Source of the DNA: Bacteroidota bacterium | Lineage (GTDB): Bacteria > Bacteroidota > Bacteroidia > NS11-12g > UBA955 | Direction: 5' to 3' | NCBI GenBank assembly: GCA_016787485.1 | Contig: JAEUUL010000022.1 | Location: forward strand, 51,887-115,886 | Length of the DNA stretch: 64,000 bases | In this document: piece after piece, positions 36-40,700 of the stretch | How the letters are laid out: the number at the start of each line of letters is the position of its first letter | How positions within the stretch are numbered: position 1 is the stretch's first letter | The notes under the pieces: generated by a model | Database searches by the model: none | What the model was told of the DNA's origin: nothing | Seen by the model: only the letters and a program-made list of their open reading frames with translations | Program-made: the position numbers and the translations under genes

Positions 36-2852
36 TTATTTGCTCTGCCTTAACATACTTTTTGTAGCTTTAGCCAACAAACCACTCGTATACTTCTCAT
101 ACAACCCAAACAAATACTCTATCCGTTCGCGTTCATCTGCAAAGGGTTCTTTGCGGTAGCATTTGTCCACGGCTTTGTCCAGGGTTTGGTGGGCTTTGAG
201 CAGGTCTGGCGGCATGGTGAGGGGATTGTACAGGGTGGCCAGGCTGCTGCCGGGGTATTTGGCGCGGGTGTCCAGCACACCCTGTGCAGCTTCCTCAACC
301 GCCTTTTTCTGGGCATCGGTGGGGTTTTCCGGCCAGGGAAAATTATAATAAACCGAAGGCGAATAACTAAAATCACTTTTCATTTTTCCGCCTACTGTAT
401 ATGCCCATCTAACGTGCATTTTAGATTGTAGTACACCGAAAATAAACACATTTGCTCCGGGTATAATTTGCAGTTTATTGCTACAAATGACATCTTTTGA
501 TAAATATCCAATGGGAATATAATCTCTATTTTCTGAACTAACCTCCGGTACAGCGAGATATTCGCTAATGGGCTGTCTATCTTGAGTAAACAATGAAGGT
601 AATTTAGAATATCTTCTAACACTTGCAGTAGGACTGCTATTTCGAAATTCAGTCACTTTTTTAAGCCTTTCCTTTAGAACCCCATTTTTCAATAATAATT
701 CAGATGGAGCTTCCTTTAGCCAAAAACAATATCGATATTTATTATTAATAAATTCGTATGCACCGATATATTTTTTAATAAATGGGATAAGTTCAGGTTC
801 TGTTTGTGAAATAAAGTCGTAATCATCTTTTTCAAGAATTAAATGCCCACCATCAGTAGGCTGGCTCCCTTTAAACATCTCCGGCAATCCATGCAAAGGT
901 TTCGATCTGCTAGAAAGTAAAATATCATTTGAAGCAACTAAATAACTATTTATATTACTAGTAGGTATTTCAATTGGATTATTATTAATTGAATCATATA
1001 TAAATAGCCTAGAACTTTCTGTACGAAGAGCAGTAAAACCAATTATGACAACATGCACAGCCGCATTTCCGCGCGCTTCATTCGACCATTTAAAAGTTTG
1101 ATGAGCAAAATAAATATGACATTTATATTTATTAAAAACATCTGAATACATAATTGGCACTTGCTCCCCTTGAACAATGCTATTTGTGCTAACAAATCCA
1201 ACTTTAGTTAAACCATATAAATTTATATATTGGGCAGCTTTTCTATACCACGCAGCAACAAAATCTAATCTCCCAGCACGTTTTGAATCATTAAAAACAA
1301 AGTGCATATCATTTTGTTGTTCTTCATTTCTCCATTGATGTCCCAAAAACGGCGGATTCCCCATTATATAATCAAACACCTGTTCTCTCTTTTGCCAGGG
1401 AATGGGGTCTATCAGGCTTTGCCAGTCTGTGCGCAGGGCATTGGCATGTACAATGCGTGGCCTGCTGCGCAAGGGAAGGCGGGCAAAATACTGGCCAAAC
1501 ATGTCACTCACCCGCAGATTCATCTGGTGGTCCATGAGCCAAAGGGCAACCTGCGCTATCTGACTGGGGAATTCCTCTATCTCTATGCCATAGAATTGTG
1601 CCACATCGCAACGGATAAAATTGCTTACAGGCACATTCGCATAGCCAGCACTGTTTCCATCCTTTATGCTAAACTGGTCATTCAGTTGCTGTTTTATCAC
1701 TTCCAGTTCCAGCAACCGCAACTCCCGGTAGCTCACAATGAGAAAATTACCGCAACCGCAGGCCGGGTCAAGAAATCGCAGTTCACTGATTTTGTCATGA
1801 AATTTGTTCATGGCACTGCTGCGTTGCCCCTTGTTCTTGTAAGCTTTTATTGCTTCAAACTCAGCCCACAACTCATCCAGAAACAGGGGTTTAATGAGTT
1901 TGAGGATATTCTTTTCACTGGTGTAATGGGCACCCAGGTTGCGGCGCTTTTCTTTGTCCATCACACTCTGAAACAGGCTGCCGAAAATGGCGGGTGAAAT
2001 GCGGCTCCAGTCAAGGCTGCAACATTCCAGCAACTGTTCGCGCATTTTGCGGTCAAATGCGGCCGGTGGCAGGGTTTCTTCAAACAGCTTGCCATTTACA
2101 TAGGCAAAGGCATTGAGTTGTTCATCCAGATTTGTCAGACGCTTTGCCGGGTCTGTGTTCAGCACATAAAACAATTCGGCCAGTTTGGACCCCAGATCGC
2201 TTCCGTCTGTCGCGGTGCGGTCTTCTATGTACGACTGAAACTGGTATTTCTCAAAAATGTTGCTGTCTTCAGCAAACAGGCAGAACAGCAGACGCACAAG
2301 GTACACTTCCAGGGCATGTCCCTCGTATCCGGTAGCCAGCATGGCATCGTGCAGCTTGCCCATCAACTCAGCCGCTTCTATGTTGGCGGGGTCCTGCTCT
2401 TTGTATTGTGTCTGTTCGTACCCGGCAATGAACTTAAACAGATCTACCTTTTCGGGCAGTTCTGCCAACATAATTTCGTGGCTGCTGTCATGGTCCAGAT
2501 CGTACAGGCGCATGCGGGCAAAATCGCTGACGATGATGTAGCGTGGATATTCGGCAGCTTTGAGGCCGGTGAAGTAGTCGGCAGCCTGATCGTAGGCGCG
2601 GTCCAGGTTTTTGCCTTTGCTTTTATGTTCCACCACCAGTTTGCCGGGCCAGAACAGGTCTATATAACCCTGTTTGTCGTTCAGTTTCTTTACAAACTTC
2701 TCAAACATGGCCACCTGCCGGCGTTCCTGCCCGAACACGCGGAAAAAGCCATCCCAGAAGCTTTTGGCTTCGGCGTCTTCATCATAGGCATCGGCCCATT
2801 CACTGGCAAAGACAGCGGCGCGGGTGCGGATTTCGTTGAGGGAGAGGGGCAT
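36..2852 (-). CDS. Type IIG/IIL single-polypeptide restriction-modification enzyme, MmeI family (N-terminal PD-(D/E)xK nuclease + N6-adenine DNA methyltransferase + target recognition domain)
   Basis: The 938 aa length is close to MmeI (919 aa). The N-terminus (MPLSLNEIRTRA...FWDGFFRVFG...IDLFWPGKLVVEHKSKGKNLDRAYDQAADYF) follows the MmeI N-terminal nuclease pattern (D...EXK). SAM-binding motif I is LDPACGCGNFL and catalytic motif IV is MGNPPFLG (NPPF/Y of amino-methyltransferases). Confidence 0.9.
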   Translation of the reverse strand: MPLSLNEIRTRAAVFASEWADAYDEDAEAKSFWDGFFRVFGQERRQVAMFEKFVKKLNDKQGYIDLFWPGKLVVEHKSKGKNLDRAYDQAADYFTGLKAAEYPRYIIVSDFARMRLYDLDHDSSHEIMLAELPEKVDLFKFIAGYEQTQYKEQDPANIEAAELMGKLHDAMLATGYEGHALEVYLVRLLFCLFAEDSNIFEKYQFQSYIEDRTATDGSDLGSKLAELFYVLNTDPAKRLTNLDEQLNAFAYVNGKLFEETLPPAAFDRKMREQLLECCSLDWSRISPAIFGSLFQSVMDKEKRRNLGAHYTSEKNILKLIKPLFLDELWAEFEAIKAYKNKGQRSSAMNKFHDKISELRFLDPACGCGNFLIVSYRELRLLELEVIKQQLNDQFSIKDGNSAGYANVPVSNFIRCDVAQFYGIEIEEFPSQIAQVALWLMDHQMNLRVSDMFGQYFARLPLRSRPRIVHANALRTDWQSLIDPIPWQKREQVFDYIMGNPPFLGHQWRNEEQQNDMHFVFNDSKRAGRLDFVAAWYRKAAQYINLYGLTKVGFVSTNSIVQGEQVPIMYSDVFNKYKCHIYFAHQTFKWSNEARGNAAVHVVIIGFTALRTESSRLFIYDSINNNPIEIPTSNINSYLVASNDILLSSRSKPLHGLPEMFKGSQPTDGGHLILEKDDYDFISQTEPELIPFIKKYIGAYEFINNKYRYCFWLKEAPSELLLKNGVLKERLKKVTEFRNSSPTASVRRYSKLPSLFTQDRQPISEYLAVPEVSSENRDYIPIGYLSKDVICSNKLQIIPGANVFIFGVLQSKMHVRWAYTVGGKMKSDFSYSPSVYYNFPWPENPTDAQKKAVEEAAQGVLDTRAKYPGSSLATLYNPLTMPPDLLKAHQTLDKAVDKCYRKEPFADERERIEYLFGLYEKYTSGLLAKATKSMLRQSK

Positions 2853-2938: not shown

Positions 2939-3445
2939 ATGTTGCAAATTTGCATAAAGATGAATCCTGAAATAGGCACAACAATTACAAATCAGGAATC
3001 TGGATTTGACCAGATCATAGATCAAGTTGTGGCATATGTGAAAGGCGAGGAACTGGAAATTTCCTCTGGTGTAGCCCCAAGGCATAAGCAAGAGATTTGG
3101 GAACAGTTGTTTAAAGGCAACTTGTTGCCCATGCTAAAATTGCAGCAAAATCAGAACAATGAAGTTTTGGGAGCACAGTTGGCCATTGGCTTTCTAAGGA
3201 GGCTCGTACTAGAATACAAGACAACTCCCCAAAAACTAGCCCTTAGTCAGAAAAACAATAAGGTATATGTATGGGCAGAAATTCAGGATGATGATGAAGC
3301 TTCAATGGATGCTATTCTGGCAGCTACAATAGACACCAACTTTGAGCATCGGGACAGTGGACTTACATTGTCTCCAATGATTGTTGAGCAACGAGAAATG
3401 ATTCCTGTACCTCCGCATTACAAGCTTCTGACCAATTATGCCTGA
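2939..3445 (+). CDS. Hypothetical protein (168 aa; an alternative start at 2960 gives MNPEIG...), first gene of a 2-gene cassette
   Basis: Intact ORF in AT-rich DNA, divergent from the RM gene. Its stop overlaps the start of the next ORF (ATGCCTGA, 8-nt overlap), implying translational coupling. I recognised no conserved motif. Confidence 0.5.
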   Translation: MLQICIKMNPEIGTTITNQESGFDQIIDQVVAYVKGEELEISSGVAPRHKQEIWEQLFKGNLLPMLKLQQNQNNEVLGAQLAIGFLRRLVLEYKTTPQKLALSQKNNKVYVWAEIQDDDEASMDAILAATIDTNFEHRDSGLTLSPMIVEQREMIPVPPHYKLLTNYA

Positions 3446-3914
3446 TTCTTCTTCGCACTTTCGACAGGCTGAAAGAAATCTTAAGGTCGTTGAAGTGCTG
3501 AATTCCAGCCCAGAACATTATTGGGATTGGCAGGTTACAGCCCTGTTTTACTCTGCATTGCATCTGATTAATGGCCACATCATGGAAACCGACGGAGGTT
3601 TTTACAATACACATGCCTCAGTGCAATCGATTATATATTTCAACAATACTGGCAGCAAGGCCAAACTGCCACGTGAGGTAGGTGTTGCATACGAAAAGTT
3701 GCAATTGCTTTCGCGCAAAGCGAGATATTTATATGATCCTGAGGGTAGAAACCTAGGAAATCCGCAATTTGTTGGTGCAGATGGATTTGAAAAAGCAGTT
3801 TATGCATATGAGATTGTTTGTAAGTATATTACCCAGACATATAATGTAAAAGTAGACAGCATCAATATTAGCTGCTTAAAGGCTGGCTGGGAAAAAAGAT
3901 CCCTGCCACTCTGA
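3438..3914 (+). CDS. Hypothetical protein with HEPN-like N-terminal helices (158 aa), second gene of the cassette
   Basis: Residues FRQAERNLKVVEVLNSS...WDWQVTALFYSALHLINGH resemble the first two helices of HEPN domains (A..L..A..L....Y..A..YyA.H...). I found no clean Rx4-6H motif (the nearest is SRKARYLYD). It overlaps the preceding ORF by 8 nt. Confidence 0.45.
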   Translation: MPDSSSHFRQAERNLKVVEVLNSSPEHYWDWQVTALFYSALHLINGHIMETDGGFYNTHASVQSIIYFNNTGSKAKLPREVGVAYEKLQLLSRKARYLYDPEGRNLGNPQFVGADGFEKAVYAYEIVCKYITQTYNVKVDSINISCLKAGWEKRSLPL

Positions 3915-4007
3915 AAACAATAATTTATCAGCATAATAAAAATCGAAAACTCGCCCTGGTTTACTTTTTTGGAAGCGAGTCTTATATTAGATATTTGATA
4001 AATTTTA

Positions 4008-4673
4008 TCAATAAAACAAGAAGCCTAAAACAAGTATTGTTCCTAAGCAACCGTAAAGCAAAGTATTATTAATATCACGTGGTGAAGATCCAGGTACATA
4101 TTCTTTTCTCTCTGTGACTTTAGCCTCTATCAGTTCTAAATCTATATTCTTATAAATTTTTCTTGAATTAATTTCTGCAGCCAATAAAAGTTTAATTTTC
4201 TCTCCTGGCTTCGGAAAAGAATCAGCACTTTGTGACTCTGTTAAATATAAATCCAATACGTCAATATTGCTTGATCTTTTTATATTGCAGTTAGGGAAAA
4301 TAGACTCTGAAAAAGTGCTATTTGCAGGTATTACAGCATTTGGTTTACTTCTGGTTGCATCAATTAATAGGGTCTGTCCACTTGAAAACGAGGTAGCATT
4401 GCCGTAAATTACCATTGAAGAGGAATTCCAAATTAGTTCAATTGGTGATTCTGAAATGTTTCTAAATATACAGTCTAAACTTGATTTACCTACAGAAAAC
4501 TTAACGGTCAATTCGGAATCTCGGTATTCCAAATTTGTGCTAATTGAATCATTAGCTCTAATCCCCCAGGTGTATTTACAGGAAAATACAGTCTTATACT
4601 TTGGCTTTAATGCTGCGCATCCTGTCAAATAAATTGAAATAAGCAAAATGATGGGTGTAAAACAATTCTTCAT
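4008..4673 (-). CDS. Lipoprotein (lipobox LTGC) with C-terminal hydrophobic anchor, function unknown
   Basis: Signal peptide MKNCFTPIILLISIYLTGC; Ser/Asn-rich body; C-terminal LLYGCLGTILVLGFLFY; AT-rich codon usage like the neighbouring cassette. Confidence 0.55.
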   Translation of the reverse strand: MKNCFTPIILLISIYLTGCAALKPKYKTVFSCKYTWGIRANDSISTNLEYRDSELTVKFSVGKSSLDCIFRNISESPIELIWNSSSMVIYGNATSFSSGQTLLIDATRSKPNAVIPANSTFSESIFPNCNIKRSSNIDVLDLYLTESQSADSFPKPGEKIKLLLAAEINSRKIYKNIDLELIEAKVTERKEYVPGSSPRDINNTLLYGCLGTILVLGFLFY

Positions 4674-4781: not shown

Positions 4782-7700
4782 TTAACTACATCCCAGACTG
4801 TTTCCACAGTTCAGGCATTTGTAGCAGGTGCCGCTGCGCACAGTGATGTGTCCGCACACGTTGCAGGCAGGGGCATCGCTTTGTACCTCACGCAGGTGGT
4901 CCTGCATGTTCTTCACTCCGCCACCGGTTTCCAGCATCGCTTCTTTTGACTCTATCACCGGAACGGGGTTGTTAAATACAGGGATGAACTCACTCACCAC
5001 CGGCGCTTCCTGCGCATCGGGGCTGGTAAACTCGCTGGGTTTCACCTGCACCAGGTCTTCGCGGTTCAGGTATTCAAAGCCAAGCAGGCGGAAGATATAA
5101 TCAACAATAGAGGTAGAATTCTTGATATTCGGGTGACCTTCCACCATGCCGCTGGGCTCGAAGCGGGTAAAGGCGAACTTGTCTACAAACTCTTCCAGGG
5201 GCACACCATACTGCAGGCCTACGGATACAGCAATGCTGAAACAGTTGACCAGAGAACGGAAGCTGGCGCCTTCCTTGTGCATATCTATAAAGATTTCACC
5301 CAGGGTACCGTCATCGTACTCACCGGTGCGCACAAAGATGGTTTGTCCGCCCACCTTGCCTTTTTGCGTAAAGCCTTTGCGCTTGTTGGGCAGGCGTTTC
5401 TTCTCTACAATGTTCGAAAGCTGGCGTTTGAATTTGGTGTCAGGGCTTTCATTCAGGATGCGCTTGGCGGCTTCCAGCACAATCTCCGGGGTCAGCTCTT
5501 CTGCAAAGCGGATCACCTTACCTTCCGTACCGGCTACTGCATCTGATTTGGCTTCTGCTTTCTCGTCTGCTTCTGCGGTTTCAGATTTATTGCTCAGGGG
5601 CTGGCTCAGTTTGCAACCATCGCGGTACAGGGCATTGGCTTTCAGGCCCAGTTTCCAGCTCAGCTCATAGCAGGCTTTGATATCGTCTACAGTGGCTTCG
5701 TTGGGCAGGTTGATGGTTTTACTGATGGCACCTGAAATAAAGGGCTGTGCAGCAGCCATCATACGGATGTGGGCAAAGGGGTGGATGTAGCGCACGCCAA
5801 TGTTTCCGCACTTGTTGGCGCAGTCAAATACAGGGTAGTGCTCCTCTTTCAGATGGGGTGCCCCTTCAATGGTCATGGTGCCTGCTACAAATACGTTGGC
5901 CTCATTGATTTCGGCTTTGCTGAATCCCAGCGCTTCCAGCATATTGAAACGGGGGTCGTTGTACTGCTCTGCAGTGAATCCTATGCGCTGCAGGCACTCC
6001 TCGCCCAGTGTGTATTTGTTGAACACAAAACCGATTTCGAATGCCATTGGGGCTTCGGATTCCAGTTTTTCCAGGTCTGCCTCGTTAAATCCTTTGGCCC
6101 GCAATGATTCGTGGTTGATATGCGGTGCACCGGCAAATGTTTGGTGACCTTTTGCATAGTTTACGATTTCATCCACTTCCTCCGGAGTGTAGCCCAGGTT
6201 TTTCAGTGCAACCGGAACGGTGTTGTTTACAATTTTAAAATATCCTCCACCACTGAGTTTCTTGTATTTCACCAGGGCAAAATCGGGTTCAATACCGGTG
6301 GTATCACAATCCATGAGCAGACCAATGGTTCCGGTTGGTGCAATCACGGTTGACTGTGCATTGCGATAGCCGTAGCGTTCACCCCACTGCAGGGCGCGAT
6401 CCCAGGCATTGCAGGCACTCTTCAGCAGATAATCAGGGCAGTATTTCTCATCAATGCAAACAGGTTTGATTCCCAACCCTTCAAACGCCAGCGGAGTGTT
6501 GTATGCCGCATAGCGGTGGTTGCGGATAACCCGCATCATGTGTTTCTTGTTCTTTTCATACATGCGGAACGGGCCTTTTACAGCTGCCATTTCTGCACTT
6601 GTAGCATAAGCAACACCTGTAAGAATGGCGGTAACCGAGCCACAAATGGCGCTGGCCTCTTTGCTGTCGTAGGGTATACCAGCACTCATCAGCACAGAAC
6701 CCAGATTGGCGTAACCCAGACCCAGTGTACGATAGTCGTAGCTGAGCTGTGCCACTTCCTTGCTGGGGAACTGGGCCATAAGCACAGAGATTTCAAGAAC
6801 AGTGGTCCACAGACGGCTGGCGTATTCCAGAGAGTTCACATCAAAGGTGCGTTCATCTTCACTGAAGAATTTGCGCAGATTGAGTGATGCCAGATTGCAG
6901 GCAGTATTGTCCAGGAACATATACTCACTGCAGGGGTTGCTGGCATTGATGCGGCCACCTTCAGGGCAGGTATGCCATTCGTTGATGGTATCATCATACT
7001 GCATTCCGGGGTCGGCACAGGCCCATGCCGCTTCACCAATGGCATCCCATACTTCCTGTGCAGGCATGGTATGCATTACTTTTCCGGTACTGCGGGCAGT
7101 AAATTCCCAATCCTGGTTGTTCTTCAGTTTGTCGAAAAACCGGTTGGATACACGGATAGAGTTGTTGCTGTTCTGTCCGGATACCGTGTTATAGGCTTCA
7201 CCTTCGTAATCGTTGCTGTATCCGGCTTTAATAAGGGCAGCCACCTTAGCTTCTTCCCCTTGTTTCCATTTGATAAACTCCAAGGCCTCGGGGTGATCCA
7301 GATCCAGACACACCATTTTGGCTGCACGGCGTGTGGTTCCGCCGCTTTTGATAGCTCCGGCAGCACGGTCACCTATTTTAAGGAAACTCATCAGGCCGCT
7401 GCTTGTTCCCCCACCACTCAGTTTTTCTCCTGCACCACGTATACGTGAGAAGTTTGTACCCACACCAGAGCCGTACTTGAAAATACGGGCTTCACGCACC
7501 CACAAATCCATGATACCGCCTTCGTTGACCAGATCATCGTCTACAGACAGGATAAAGCAGGCATGGGGTTGCGGACGTTCGTAGGCAGATGTGCTTTTGG
7601 TGAGTTTTTCAGTCTCAGGATCCACGTAGTAGTGACCCTGAGGTTTGCCTGCAATGGCATAGCTGCTGTGCAGACCTGTGTTGAACCACTGCGGGCTGTT

Positions 7701-37708: not shown

Positions 37709-40700
37709 ATGATCAAGAAAATACTGTTCTCATTGCTCGCAACCCTGTGCCTGAATGCCTATGGCCAATACAGCACCAATTCGGTTGCTCCTGTTGTTTT
37801 GCCTTCATACATGGCTGGTTCCCAGGGTGGAAGCCATGCCCTGCCCGTACTGTTTAAACTGCGCATCATTGGCATGGCGCCAAACAACAAGTACAAATAT
37901 GTTGTGCGTGGTATGTCTGCCGCCGACATGGCCAGTACCAACCTGTTTGCCGGAGCCGGAAACGGGCTTTATCCCGACACCGGTGGTATATGGCGCTATG
38001 TCAGCGGCACACCTTCATTTGCCAACAACAACCACGATACATTTACCACAAGTGGTGGCGGGGAATACGAAGGTTGGTTTGGCCTTGTAGCCACCAATGA
38101 TTCCCGTTTCAATGCAGGAAAAGCCATTTATCCCGGCCTTACCATTATCGGCATTGGCAATACCGACACATTCAGGGTTGCTTCCATTGATTCCATGCGG
38201 GTACTCAGCTTCAGCACAAGCAACGCTGCAGATACATCCTGCACAGGCATCTACGGCAAGAGTATGGGCACCGACCGCAATCTGGTTGCCCTCTACAACA
38301 ACAACACCGGTATGGGACGTCCCTTAAATGTAACCTACATTGAAAATGAAAAAGTAAACATTCCGAATCTGGTTTCCTTTTACAGCAATGTGGAAGGCAA
38401 AAGCGGATACTGGGCAGCCATCATGCCAAATACGAATTCTTTCGGTATTCGCCGCATTGAGCAAATCAGTCTGAAAACCAACCTGATTGTGTACGCCAAC
38501 AATGATGGAGATGGTATCTGGGGACCCTCCTCTAAATCCACCATAAATCCCACCGGTGGTCGCACAAGTCCGGTTTCTTTTGATGAAAACGACGCTGCCC
38601 TCACCCCTCCCATGGTTGAATACTGGACCGGAACGTCAACAAAAAAAGAGAATGATGGTGCTGTAGAAGTGTATGTTGTGCGCAAATACAGCAATGACCA
38701 GGCTCAATCTGTGCGGATTTTTGTAGCAGGCAATACCGCTACCAAAAATGCCGATTATACCATTGCCTCAGACCCCAAAACCATCACATTTAAGGCCAGT
38801 GGCGCCCAGGCCAATGATACAACAAAAATCACCATTACAGATGATCAGATTCATGAAGGCGATGAGACCATTGTGCTTTCCATGGACAATGCTTCAAACT
38901 GTGTGATTGGCGCGAACAAGGCCCACACCATGACCATCAAAGACAACGACACAGCCTATATCTCTGTTAAAAAGAAAACAGAAATCGTGAAAGAGTCGGC
39001 TGGCAAAGTGGGGATCACTGTAAAAATCGACAAAGCGGTAGGAACACCCAGTCAGTTGCGCTTGAGGGTGAAATCCAAAGGTTTTTTCACCAATATTCCG
39101 GCAGAATACAAACTGGGACAAAACAACACGGACTCGGTGATCACCCTGGGCAAAACCACAGGACCCGACAGCGTAACCATTTATGCCAGAGTGATTGATG
39201 AAAGCAATCCCGATGCAGATGATAGTGTGATACTGGTAGTTCGTCCCATTACAGGTGTTGCCAGACTGAAAGATTCACTGTGTACCCAGATTATGCAGGA
39301 CAATGACGGACCGTGCCACATCAAATTCCTGAACAAAACCGCTACAGCAAAAGAACCCGACGGAACCCTGAAGGTGAGAATATTGCTCGTGAAAAAGACA
39401 GATGCCGGCGGAGACTTCTCTCTCCGTTATATCTCCAGTGCTTCTTCTGCACAGGAGGGAGTTCGCTTTACCTATAATCCCACAAGCAAAATTTTCAACA
39501 TAGACAACACAACTCCGGATACAATCGATGTATCGGTTCCATTAATCAACGACAACATTTACCAACCCACCCAAAACATCATGTGGGGTCTGGGCTCTCT
39601 GAACAATGTGACTATCCTGAAACCCGACAGCTTCAATGTAACCCTGTTGAACGACGACTTGCCCCTGTATAAAATCGGAACCATCCGCAGCCAGAACAGC
39701 ACGGCAAAAACCCCGGACTCAAGCGGTGTGCGATGCCGGATCTCGGGCACAGTTTACGGAGGTAATCTCAGTGGCAATGGGGTAGAATTTACCTTGCGTG
39801 ACAATACCGGTGGCATCCTCGTTTCAAATCTTAAAAAGTATGGCTACAACGTTACAGAAGGTGACTCACTCCTGATTTCCGGCACAGTGCTCCCCAACAA
39901 TGGCCTGCCCATGTTTGGCACACTCGATACCATCATCAAAATAGCTGGCAGCCGCCCGCTGAATGCGGTGTCTGTGGTTACCACACTCAATGAAAGCACA
40001 GAAAGCAGACTGATTCAAAAACGCCGTGTAAAACTGGTAAACCCTGCAGAATGGCCTTCATCCGCCCTCAGTGCAAATTCAGGCAAATATGTGCGGATTC
40101 AAACCACTTCAGGAGTTACAGACAGTCTGTATATAGATGCAGAAACCGATCTGGACGGGACTACAGCACCGACCGGATATTTAAACGTAACCGGCATAGG
40201 CGGGCAGTCTGACCCCACAGCCCCTCACACCGTGGGCTACACCATTTGTCCGCGCAAACTCACAGACATTACCCCTGCATCGCTTCCGGTTGTAAAATTT
40301 GCCAAGGTGCGTGACACCATTACAGAACTGGCCGACTCCTTCCGCATGGATTTCAACATTGCACCTACCGATGAAAACTTCAGCTACGATATCGCTATAC
40401 AGAGCAGCAGTACTGCACAAAATCCGCGTGACTACAACTGGACTACCCGCACCATTAATGTGATTAAGAACAACTCATTCTATACCACAAAATGCAATAT
40501 CAGCGATGATGTGGTATCGGATGGTGATCAAACCCTTGTGTTTGTGATACGGAATATCAATGGTCCCGGTTCTGTGGGAACAGATAGTGCACTTACCCTG
40601 GTTATTCTAGACAATGAACCGAAAATCGGGGTGAAAACCTTTGCGGACGGCCAGATAAGAATGTATCCCAACCCAGCTGCACAGAAAGTGTTCCTGCGCA

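Follow-up and report, generated by a model that had tools for sequence, protein, structure and literature searches.

A mobile two-gene cassette pairing a non-canonical HEPN-fold protein with a conserved partner in Bacteroidota and temperate phages

A 64,000-nt stretch of contig JAEUUL010000022.1 from a Bacteroidota bacterium, referred to here as the window, contains two small overlapping genes that move together as a cassette (Table 1). The second gene (ORF2) encodes a protein with a HEPN fold that lacks the canonical motif, and the first (ORF1) encodes a conserved partner protein. The cassette is present in temperate phages of Bacteroidota and cyanobacteria and is widespread in Bacteroidota. 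We propose that the pair constitutes a toxin-antitoxin or abortive-infection-like module, with ORF2 as an RNase toxin of non-canonical HEPN type and ORF1 as a protein antitoxin of a new kind, and assign this reading a probability of roughly one half.

Table 1. Coordinates of the two-gene cassette, its flanking elements and the adjacent restriction-modification gene in the window.
Feature	Position	Strand	Description
MmeI-family type IIG restriction-modification enzyme	36..2852	-	Complete; all five Pfam MmeI domains; divergent from the pair
Palindrome TGCAAATTTGCA	2943..2954	+	Perfect; 5 nt upstream of ATG 2960; left cassette boundary
ORF1	2960..3445	+	161 aa; partner protein, family unassigned; proposed antitoxin/regulator
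ORF1/ORF2 overlap	3438..3445	+	8 nt, ATGCCTGA; ORF2 start / ORF1 stop
ORF2	3438..3914	+	158 aa; HEPN fold, AF0298/UPF0332-like branch, C-terminal beta-hairpin; proposed RNase toxin/effector
3' element ATCGAAAAC(T/C)CGCC..GCGAGTCTT	3942..3983	+	Downstream of ORF2; right cassette boundary in this sub-lineage

Both open reading frames are present as the initial annotation gave them (2939..3445, +, 168 aa, and 3438..3914, +, 158 aa), and the sequence at their junction bears out the 8-nt overlap, which implies translational coupling of ORF2 to ORF1. Judged by their homologues, both are genuine genes and not chance ORFs, because 14 clusters for ORF2 and about 20 for ORF1 were recovered at E 1e-40 to 1e-100; in an exhaustive profile search the ORF2 family comprises 1,345 representative clusters. 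The existence of ORF1 stands, but its start at 2939 does not hold up as well. ATG 2960 is the more likely start, as the NCBI record begins there, the N-termini of homologues align there, and a conserved promoter-like palindrome, marking the left cassette edge, falls inside the longer frame. Among close relatives, identity amounts to 63-76% for ORF1 and 61-76% for ORF2. The GC content of the pair is 0.42-0.43, compared with 0.50-0.54 in the neighbouring ribonucleotide reductase gene.

Co-occurrence of the two genes across genomes had been put forward as a check, and the pairing is indeed conserved: an ORF1 homologue lies directly upstream of ORF2 in all of the approximately 20 distinct genomic contexts examined, each with an intact pair, and this persists down to about 24% (ORF1) and 29% (ORF2) identity. 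The 8-nt overlap is common to the window and loci L008, L019, L020, L021 and L033, while elsewhere the genes overlap by 1 nt or are separated by 3 nt (4 nt with the caller's shorter ORF1). In this respect the pair fits the operational picture of a type II-like module: both genes are small, run in one direction and lie in close coupling, and they stay together across unrelated contexts and mobile elements. A minimal pair from Gastranaerophilales (L031, 106+121 aa) was considered as a further member and set aside; its HEPN protein is related, but no homology to ORF1 could be detected in the partner. Locus L030 holds a fragment too short for such a comparison.

The homology that defines the cassette extends over 2943-3983, from the palindrome to the 3' element, and moves as a single unit. 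Homology detected by blastn to L008, L020 and L021 starts exactly at 2943. The palindrome motif is unique within the window, and in L001, L005, L008, L012, L019, L020 and L021, loci among which the upstream DNA is unrelated, the motif TGCAA[A/C]TT[T/C]G recurs 5-9 nt ahead of ORF1. We regard the palindrome as a candidate Bacteroidota -7 promoter box and/or operator, the stretch to be compared with the consensus TAnnTTTG being CAAATTTG; the conserved palindrome overlaps this putative promoter, and any binding of ORF1 there is conjectural. On the opposite side, the copies of the 3' element in the window, L005, L008, L019 and L020 align with 29 invariant columns despite differing flanks. It is predicted to form a weak terminator-like hairpin, whose stability is no better than that of shuffled sequence in three of four copies. 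This folding behaviour, together with an Rfam search that returned nothing above threshold in or around the pair, led us to reject an RNA antitoxin or sRNA as part of the cassette.

ORF2 is a single-domain protein that belongs to the HEPN superfamily. [quoted passage not shown] Only W31, Y38, H59, R96 and Y97 are invariant across 114 diverse relatives. R96 and Y97 directly follow the helix formed by residues 79-95, and H59 resides inside the insert between helices 2 and 3. H59, R96 and Y97 thereby coincide with the alternative site that AF0298-like and AbiV HEPNs are described to have, in which the basic residue is kept and the His is contributed by the insert (PMC3710099). The alignment of one relative to PDB 9xbd matches H59 with its His and Y97 with its Tyr; in the companion entry, 9xbc, Phe replaces Tyr at the position aligned with Y97.

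Among the closest known proteins are the AF0298/UPF0332-type HEPNs (PF05168; the 'HEPN-T' of Anantharaman et al. 2013; PDB 2hsb, 1ufb, 1wol, 9xbd), which likewise lack the motif His, are small (~125-160 aa) and are encoded by the second gene of an overlapping two-gene pair. Unlike these, ORF2 carries S-R-x-x-R-Y where they have R-N-x-x-D-Y, possesses an extra C-terminal beta-hairpin, has an upstream partner other than a minimal nucleotidyltransferase and, for the window protein, escapes PF05168 even at E <= 10. PF05168 is matched by 32 of the 114 relatives at E <= 0.1, and three of the 114 pass its gathering threshold of 22 bits (P0174 at 28.1, P0184 at 25.6 and P0162 at 22.2 bits), so the ORF2 family borders or extends PF05168; one of its members is named 'UPF0332 family' in IMG. 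We assign ORF2 to the AF0298-type HEPN branch, which had been described before. To our knowledge, neither toxicity nor RNase activity has been shown experimentally for the ORF2 family or for AF0298-type HEPNs, and the activity of the AF0298/UPF0332 branch, which is devoid of the catalytic histidine, has never been demonstrated.

Searches of Pfam, NCBIfam, PADLOC and PHROGs gave zero matches for either window protein, in agreement with the earlier statement that neither could be assigned to a recognised family, and the ORF2 family as a whole is not represented in PADLOC, NCBIfam or PHROGs. The pair is thereby missing from the defence and toxin-antitoxin catalogues, as the empty PADLOC and NCBIfam searches indicate. 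The suggestion of an undescribed system holds with respect to these catalogues, but not with respect to the HEPN branch of ORF2 and its alternative R/H site, which have been known since 2013 (PMC3710099). Sequence-profile searches of the PDB with profiles A1, A2, A3, A4 and A5 produced chance-level matches alone, and O-acetyl-ADP-ribose deacetylase, PCNA, LsrG and designed proteins were dismissed as relatives on this basis; a single relative, P0162, reached a PDB HEPN entry.

In seven of the approximately 20 contexts the pair belongs to a temperate phage or to an element flanked by an integrase, and its place there is invariably the lysogeny region. The complete Microcystis phage Mea-Yong924-1 carries the pair beside its integrase, L018 has it at a prophage end with a holin and an integrase, and in L019 it is accompanied by an integrase, a SIR2-like gene and an MmeI remnant. 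Phage contigs carrying the pair encode a portal, a terminase and a repressor, or an integrase. HipBA is inserted alongside the pair in one context, and YefM/YoeB is found nearby in another. The reading of the pair as a mobile cassette is supported by these ties to prophage lysogeny regions, integrases, restriction-modification, HipBA and the SIR2-like gene; plasmid carriage was not found. The idea of a defence-type neighbourhood applies in part, to those contexts with HipBA, the SIR2-like gene or MmeI, but in about half of the contexts the surroundings are ordinary housekeeping genes, among which the pair is a solitary, unrelated insertion. In several lineages the pair is syntenic on the chromosome beside ribonucleotide reductase or peptidase M20, and vertical inheritance is therefore possible in those lineages. 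In L015 and L024 an ECF sigma factor gene and a 105-aa gene precede it in the same orientation.

These chromosomal positions bear on a non-toxic role for the pair, which we consider rather unlikely: an inactive HEPN would bind nucleotide or RNA, with ORF1 as a structural or regulatory partner, in cellular or phage regulation such as stress response or lysogeny control. The many loci among housekeeping genes, their synteny across related genomes and the same-strand arrangement behind the ECF sigma factor and 105-aa gene are consistent with such a role, as are the missing Rx4-6H histidine, the equal conservation of ORF1 and ORF2 among close relatives, and the fact that HEPN domains without the motif are often regarded as binding domains (PMC3710099). 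However, R96, H59 and Y97 are invariant at the positions of the alternative catalytic site, whereas the label 'inactive' was kept in the 2013 analysis for HEPNs without conserved polar residues (PMC3710099), and the patchy, cassette-like distribution with recurrence in phage integrase-repressor regions argues in the same direction.

That recurrence, always in the lysogeny region, and the lower GC of the Bacteroidota copies relative to host core genes would also suit a prophage moron serving the phage itself (superinfection exclusion, counter-defence or induction control), with chromosomal copies as decayed prophage remnants. We judge this improbable, as most chromosomal copies have no other phage genes within 8 kb. 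It furthermore overlaps with the toxin-antitoxin or abortive-infection reading and does not exclude it, given that HepS and similar HEPN defences encoded by prophages are proposed abortive-infection systems (PMC13043305).

For ORF1, no convincing family or fold match was obtained. In the structure model, its N-terminal half is helical with low confidence, while the C-terminal part (66-160) forms a confident alpha+beta sandwich; a comparison with BFVD viral structures yielded nothing at E <= 0.001. A YutD-like antitoxin was rejected, resting on a single weak N-terminal Pfam match in one homologue (E 0.045, not significant). Neither an HTH, an RHH nor an AbrB DNA-binding domain was detected by Pfam, NCBIfam or fold search. 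Conserved polar residues are almost absent, and we therefore read ORF1 as a binder rather than an enzyme.

The analogy to HEPN/MNT systems drawn in the initial annotation fails for ORF1, which matches no family and lacks a nucleotidyltransferase motif. In HepT/MntA (type VII), the motifs are R-phi-xxx-H-x-Y for HepT and GSx10DxD for MntA (PMC13000451). The pair resembles this system in its antitoxin-first overlapping order and the conserved Tyr beside the motif Arg, but differs in the SRxxRY motif of ORF2, with an invariant Tyr and no His, and in the absence of GSx10DxD from ORF1; it is thus not a canonical HEPN/MNT pair, and neutralisation by AMPylation is unlikely. There remains little room for ORF1 as an extremely diverged minimal nucleotidyltransferase that AMPylates Tyr97 as MntA does HepT. 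Such a role would agree with the usual pairing of PF05168-type HEPNs with an upstream overlapping MNT gene (PMC3710099), with the AMPylation of HepT on a Tyr adjacent to its motif (PMC13000451) and with the invariance of Y97 and its alignment to the 9xbd Tyr. Against it, D112 is the sole carboxylate of ORF1 that is at least 90% conserved, with no conserved carboxylate pair; the model places a beta-hairpin where the strand-helix-strand carrying the nucleotidyltransferase motif belongs; and six diverse ORF1 members gave no NTP_transf_2 or Polbeta Pfam match at E <= 10.

A further model comes from PrrC, an anticodon nuclease tied to the type I enzyme EcoprrI: by analogy, the pair would act as a second-line effector wired to MmeI, firing upon inhibition of the restriction enzyme. 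The link to the restriction-modification gene is real in one sub-lineage, where L005 and L019 share the MmeI-pair junction of the window, but it is not general. Although the divergent arrangement with a complete MmeI gene, the recurring junction and the reported clustering of HEPN-T genes with restriction-modification operons (PMC3710099) favour such wiring, we find it very improbable, since MmeI in L005 and L019 is an internally deleted remnant of ~80-130 aa beside an intact pair, the other ~17 contexts contain no restriction-modification gene (leaving a neighbour in only three of ~20, decayed in two), and homology to L008, L020, L021, L001 and L012 stops at 2943 and does not include MmeI. 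In PrrC/RloC-type proteins, moreover, an ABC-type ATPase precedes the HEPN domain in a fusion and the restriction-modification link is obligate, neither of which applies to ORF2.

Returning to the toxin-antitoxin or abortive-infection reading, we postulate that the cassette acts as a self-contained, horizontally mobile two-gene module. ORF1 would be translated first from the shared transcript, which is probably leaderless or carries a short leader, with ORF2 translation coupled to it. ORF2 may be a HEPN ribonuclease with an alternative site, formed by R96 at the end of helix 3, the invariant Y97, and H59 from the insert between helices 2 and 3. ORF1 would be a non-enzymatic partner that binds ORF2 and silences it, much as a type II antitoxin does. 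We infer that once ORF1 is lost or displaced, be it by phage infection, by stress or because the element disappears, the RNase could be freed and translation arrested. Where temperate phages carry the cassette, it lies in the integrase-repressor region; prophage expression from there may protect the lysogen or stabilise the element. Several observations speak against this reading: the canonical catalytic His is missing in ORF2; ORF1 lacks the DNA-binding domain carried by most type II antitoxins; close relatives show ORF1 to be conserved about as well as ORF2, although antitoxins as a rule diverge faster than toxins; neither plasmid carriage nor a PADLOC match was found; and the syntenic chromosomal copies could be vertically inherited.

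Several known systems share single traits with the pair. AbiV, the abortive-infection HEPN of Lactococcus (PDB 9bj5), has the alternative His position, was listed with the AF0298 family in 2013 (PMC3710099), and is a phage-defence toxin restrained by a co-encoded neutraliser. That neutraliser is an RNA (type III; bioRxiv 10.1101/2024.05.05.592566), unlike the conserved 160-aa protein partner here, and neither a sequence-level relationship nor a HEPN_AbiV Pfam match places the pair with AbiV. Solo HEPN defences of prophages (HepS of Gifsy-1; Tha) likewise occupy an accessory slot of temperate phages and are proposed to act by abortive infection (PMC13043305); HepS, however, works as one protein whose motif (R100-H105) is canonical and whose regulation comes from its own tetramer, in contrast to the obligate two-gene pair with its non-canonical site. 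RnlA/RnlB and LsoA/LsoB combine a HEPN toxin with a non-MNT protein antitoxin, but RnlA and LsoA are ~350 aa long, comprise several domains and keep the canonical motif; the toxin gene comes first in these systems, and there is no sequence similarity to either gene of the pair.

A more specific proposal is that the pair constitutes an undescribed two-component anti-phage (abortive-infection) system, in which the ORF1 family, as a new class of protein partner that has no known fold relatives, would be both antitoxin and infection sensor and ORF2 an RNase using the R/Y and insert-His site in place of Rx4-6H; we put this forward tentatively and regard it as possible but doubtful. HEPN RNases are among the commonest effectors in toxin-antitoxin, abortive-infection and CRISPR systems, and the module escapes annotation unnoticed both in genomes of Bacteroidota and in phages, Microcystis phage Mea-Yong924-1 among them. 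The family provides a compact, strongly conserved and phage-borne test case for whether the alternative site is catalytic. If the proposal is true, it would give the first functional assignment for the alternative HEPN site predicted in 2013 in AF0298-type proteins. The family could further reveal by what means a HEPN toxin is kept in check when the usual nucleotidyltransferase is absent and, if it is a defence system, would add to the thin Bacteroidota repertoire and to the immunity genes encoded by prophages.

ORF1 and ORF2 lie beside a divergent MmeI-family gene (PADLOC REase_MTase_IIG, 1167 bits) and, as stated in the initial annotation, overlap by 8 nt. Their GC content is 0.42-0.43, compared with 0.50-0.54 in the adjoining ribonucleotide reductase gene. 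Both are real genes, as their homologues fall into clusters (14 for ORF2, about 20 for ORF1) of similar length at E values of 1e-40 to 1e-100. The deposited records, JNL57_06950 and JNL57_06955 of a Bacteroidetes MAG, describe hypothetical proteins, and searches of Pfam, NCBIfam, PADLOC and PHROGs returned no match for either, in line with the earlier view that they belong to no recognised family. The frame first described for ORF1 stands, although its start is probably different: the most likely start is ATG 2960, giving 161 aa, because the deposited start and the homologue N-termini coincide there and positions 2943-2954, within the longer frame, form a conserved non-coding motif. Within ORF2, positions 3775-3851 (+) resemble the Bacteroides-1 sRNA of Rfam below its gathering score (25.5 versus 43 bits, E 0.13), most likely by chance.

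Features of the window and phage or integrase-flanked loci carrying relatives of the pair (L numbers, loci from other genomes or viral contigs)
Feature	Position	Strand	Remarks
MmeI-family type IIG restriction-modification enzyme	36..2852	-	5/5 MmeI Pfam domains; complete
Perfect palindrome TGCAAATTTGCA	2943-2954	+	5 nt upstream of ATG 2960
ORF1, reading frame as first described	2939..3445	+	168 aa
ORF1/ORF2 overlap	3438-3445	+	ATGCCTGA
ORF2	3438..3914	+	158 aa
Conserved 3' element ATCGAAAACCCGCCCTGGTGCGCTGTTC…GGCGAGTCTT	3942-3983	+	~42 nt; 3' of ORF2 in window, L005, L008, L019, L020
L018			tail-like protein, holin, pair, then convergent integrase
L019			SIR2-like gene, MmeI remnant, pair, integrase
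L032/L035			phage contig: portal, large and small terminase subunits, repressor
L036 and L038			integrase in both; repressor also in L038
L037			viral contig
L041, Microcystis phage Mea-Yong924-1 (MZ447863.1)	37981-40180		complete genome; QXN68092 and QXN68093, then integrase QXN68094

We postulate, at a probability of about 50%, that the pair is a toxin-antitoxin or abortive-infection-type module, in which ORF2 acts as a HEPN RNase and ORF1 as its neutraliser. ORF2 would use an alternative site formed by R96, Y97 and H59. ORF1, whose translation comes first and is coupled to that of ORF2, would neutralise ORF2 through direct binding, and ORF2 set free by a presumed trigger would become toxic by arresting translation.

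The AlphaFold2 model of ORF2, built with 13 homologues, is confident (pLDDT 88.9, pTM 0.86) and consists of helices 4-22 and 29-52, a short helix 59-66, helices 79-95 and 113-135, and a C-terminal β-hairpin. When 1.84 billion representatives were searched exhaustively with a profile, 1,345 relatives emerged at E ≤ 0.001, 196 of them at E ≤ 1e-10; the best 150 of the 1,345 are nearly all single-domain proteins of about 160 aa. Because the Pfam HEPN profile PF05168 is matched by 32 of 114 diverse relatives (best E 2.4e-6; three above the gathering score) and IMG names one family member 'UPF0332 family', ORF2 is HEPN-like, with the AF0298/UPF0332 type as its nearest branch. The initial annotation was thus correct on the fold, and equally on the absence of a canonical Rx4-6H motif. 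Only W31, Y38, H59, R96 and Y97 are invariant across the 114 relatives, with H7, N14, D30, T34, H42, Y85, L88, S92 and L124 conserved in at least 90%. In the model, R96-Y97 directly follow helix 79-95, and H59 is the first residue of the short insert helix. According to Anantharaman et al. (PMC3710099), the motif histidine is missing from AF0298-like HEPN-T proteins and from AbiV, which retain the basic residue; the modelled ORF2 fits this alternative site. Furthermore, aligning the ORF2 relative P0162 to the solved HEPN structure 9xbd places the family histidine on the histidine of 'SSHS' and 'LSRKARY' on 'LRNRSDY'. As invariance, model positions and alignment all match the alternative-site description, we infer that R96, Y97 and H59 form a catalytic or ligand-binding site.

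PDB 9xbd and its companion 9xbc are recent, apparently unpublished entries ('HEPN domain-containing protein', 125-131 aa), and a literature search found no paper citing them. At the position aligned with Y97, 9xbc carries Phe and 9xbd Tyr; modification or catalysis at this residue of the AF0298 branch may be under study by others. The literature yielded no biochemical precedent for AF0298-type HEPN activity, which counts against the toxin reading. Weighed against the invariance of the site residues, a regulatory adaptor pair built on an inactive HEPN is rather unlikely.

The two genes are obligately paired: in each locus examined that has a full-length ORF2 homologue, an ORF1 homologue lies immediately upstream. 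This partner was detected by tblastn in 27 of the first 32 loci and in viral contigs L036-L038, and by hhalign in L025 (97.5%), L026 (99.6%), L033 (75%, E 2.5e-5) and the Microcystis phage (97.3%). Checking co-occurrence across genomes, as had been suggested, we found the pairing kept in about 20 distinct contexts after redundant contigs were merged, comprising Flavobacteriales, Chitinophagales, Spirosomataceae, Maribellus and Bacteroidaceae MAGs and a cyanophage. Junctions are 8- or 1-nt overlaps or gaps of 3-4 nt. Two outliers are a 106+121 aa pair in a Gastranaerophilales MAG (L031, 7589-8276), whose partner is not detectably related to ORF1, and a 95-aa fragment at a contig end. L031 and viral contigs L039 and L040 encode shorter HEPN relatives (121-134 aa) without the C-terminal hairpin, preceded by genes of 106, 167 and 190 aa with no detectable relation to ORF1; the HEPN core may combine with different partners.

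The pair is carried by phages and integrase-flanked elements. GenBank annotates both Microcystis phage proteins as hypothetical, and the phage Mae-Yong924-2 (MZ570427) also matches ORF2; the module is therefore not limited to Bacteroidota. No plasmid carriage of the pair was found. The L019 locus resembles a small mobile island of defence genes, since a gene encoding a 364-aa protein (6072-7169, -) weakly similar to defence-associated SIR2 (PADLOC Aga_SIR2, E 7e-9) adjoins an MmeI remnant and a tyrosine integrase. A moron that benefits the phage, a reading that partly overlaps with ours, is improbable. Distant chromosomal copies are solitary among housekeeping genes (Cys/Met PLP enzyme, FtsH, RecO, MsrA, GH3/beta-lactamase, peptidase M23). 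The neighbour in L025 appears from its sequence to be an Era-type GTPase, and in one lineage the pair follows an ECF sigma factor gene.

The N-terminal half of the ORF1 model is helical and of low confidence, followed by a confident α+β domain (helix 66-85, strands 92-98 and 101-108, helix 113-129, strands 136-143 and 155-159). Almost no polar residue is conserved in the diverse alignment, in which P151 is invariant and A106, D112 and N127 reach at least 90%; this pattern suggests that ORF1 is a binding protein more than an enzyme. Without a GSx10DxD motif it is not a canonical MNT, and only the HEPN half of the HEPN/MNT analogy survives. It is accordingly unlikely that ORF1 is a degenerate nucleotidyltransferase that modifies the invariant Y97 of ORF2 in the manner of a type VII system. 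Two properties of ORF1 count against the toxin-antitoxin reading: it has no DNA-binding domain, and close relatives conserve it as well as they do ORF2.

The cassette has defined boundaries. Motifs of the TGCAAATTTGCA type recur 5-9 nt ahead of the ORF1 start in relatives with unrelated upstream DNA. The Bacteroidota -7 promoter box has the consensus TAnnTTTG, which we take the palindrome to resemble; it is a candidate promoter or operator, which would imply a leaderless transcript. In blastn comparisons with L008, L020 and L021, homology starts exactly at 2943 and ends at about 3960. The 3' element has 29 invariant columns across five loci with differing flanks, and in three of four copies the hairpin predicted for it gains no stability over shuffled sequence; candidate roles are a terminator, the remnant of an attachment site or a binding site for protein or RNA. 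Given the blastn start and the extent of this element, the transferable unit spans about 2943-3983.

In the window, L005-7, L008-11, L020 and L021, the cassette is syntenic, with genes for class II ribonucleotide reductase and PcrB nearby. Between the cassette and the reductase gene is a variable slot, possibly an integration hotspot, holding a 221-aa lipoprotein-like gene (window), five unknown genes and an HTH gene (L005), an SDH-type protease (L020) or nothing (L008). The window's slot gene (4008-4673, -; GC about 0.32) encodes a protein with a lipoprotein-type signal (…LTGC…) and, at its C terminus, a hydrophobic helix; its one family match, with the superinfection-exclusion lipoprotein Cor, is at chance level (PHROGs E 0.21). 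In L001-4, L022 and L012-14 the cassette lies between peptidase M20 and DUF7948/CHU_C genes. One lineage alone (L001, 5732-7255) has a three-gene HipBA module (HTH_3, Couple_hipA, HipA_C) between the peptidase gene and the cassette; as the otherwise syntenic L012 lacks it, a second toxin-antitoxin system landed at the same spot. Syntenic positions in several lineages count against the toxin-antitoxin reading. The cassette behaves as a small selfish or accessory unit and belongs to no metabolic operon.

The opposite flank varies as well, with full MmeI in the window and unknown genes plus a patatin gene in L008. Internally deleted MmeI remnants (L005, 7035-7418; L019, 7166-7414; related to window 73-192 and 2695-2852) lie beside intact cassettes in different genomic settings. 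In both, the N-terminal 50 or so codons run straight into C-terminal codons, and the two junctions nearly coincide. In this sub-lineage the cassette seems to have moved together with MmeI, the pair being retained as the restriction gene decayed. The restriction-modification neighbour first pointed out is thus real in the window and local to one sub-lineage rather than a general link, and a guard tied to MmeI is very unlikely. Within MmeI, about 1 kb (401-1400) has a GC content of 0.30-0.35, against 0.45-0.53 elsewhere in the gene, and encodes about aa 484-817, the end of the methyltransferase domain and the target-recognition domain (Pfam TRD 642-842); this suggests that the specificity domain was swapped in by recombination from a lower-GC donor.

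The HEPN fold and HEPN toxins with an upstream neutraliser are already known, and prediction of the alternative active site dates from 2013. New are an uncatalogued sub-family of 1,345 clusters, marked by an S-R-x-x-R-Y motif and an extra hairpin at the C terminus; an obligate partner family without detectable relatives in place of the MNT usual for this HEPN branch; and recurrent placement within the lysogeny regions of temperate phages from two phyla. That the pair is an undescribed two-component anti-phage system is a tentative proposal, well short of even odds; if true, it would bring functional validation of the alternative HEPN site.
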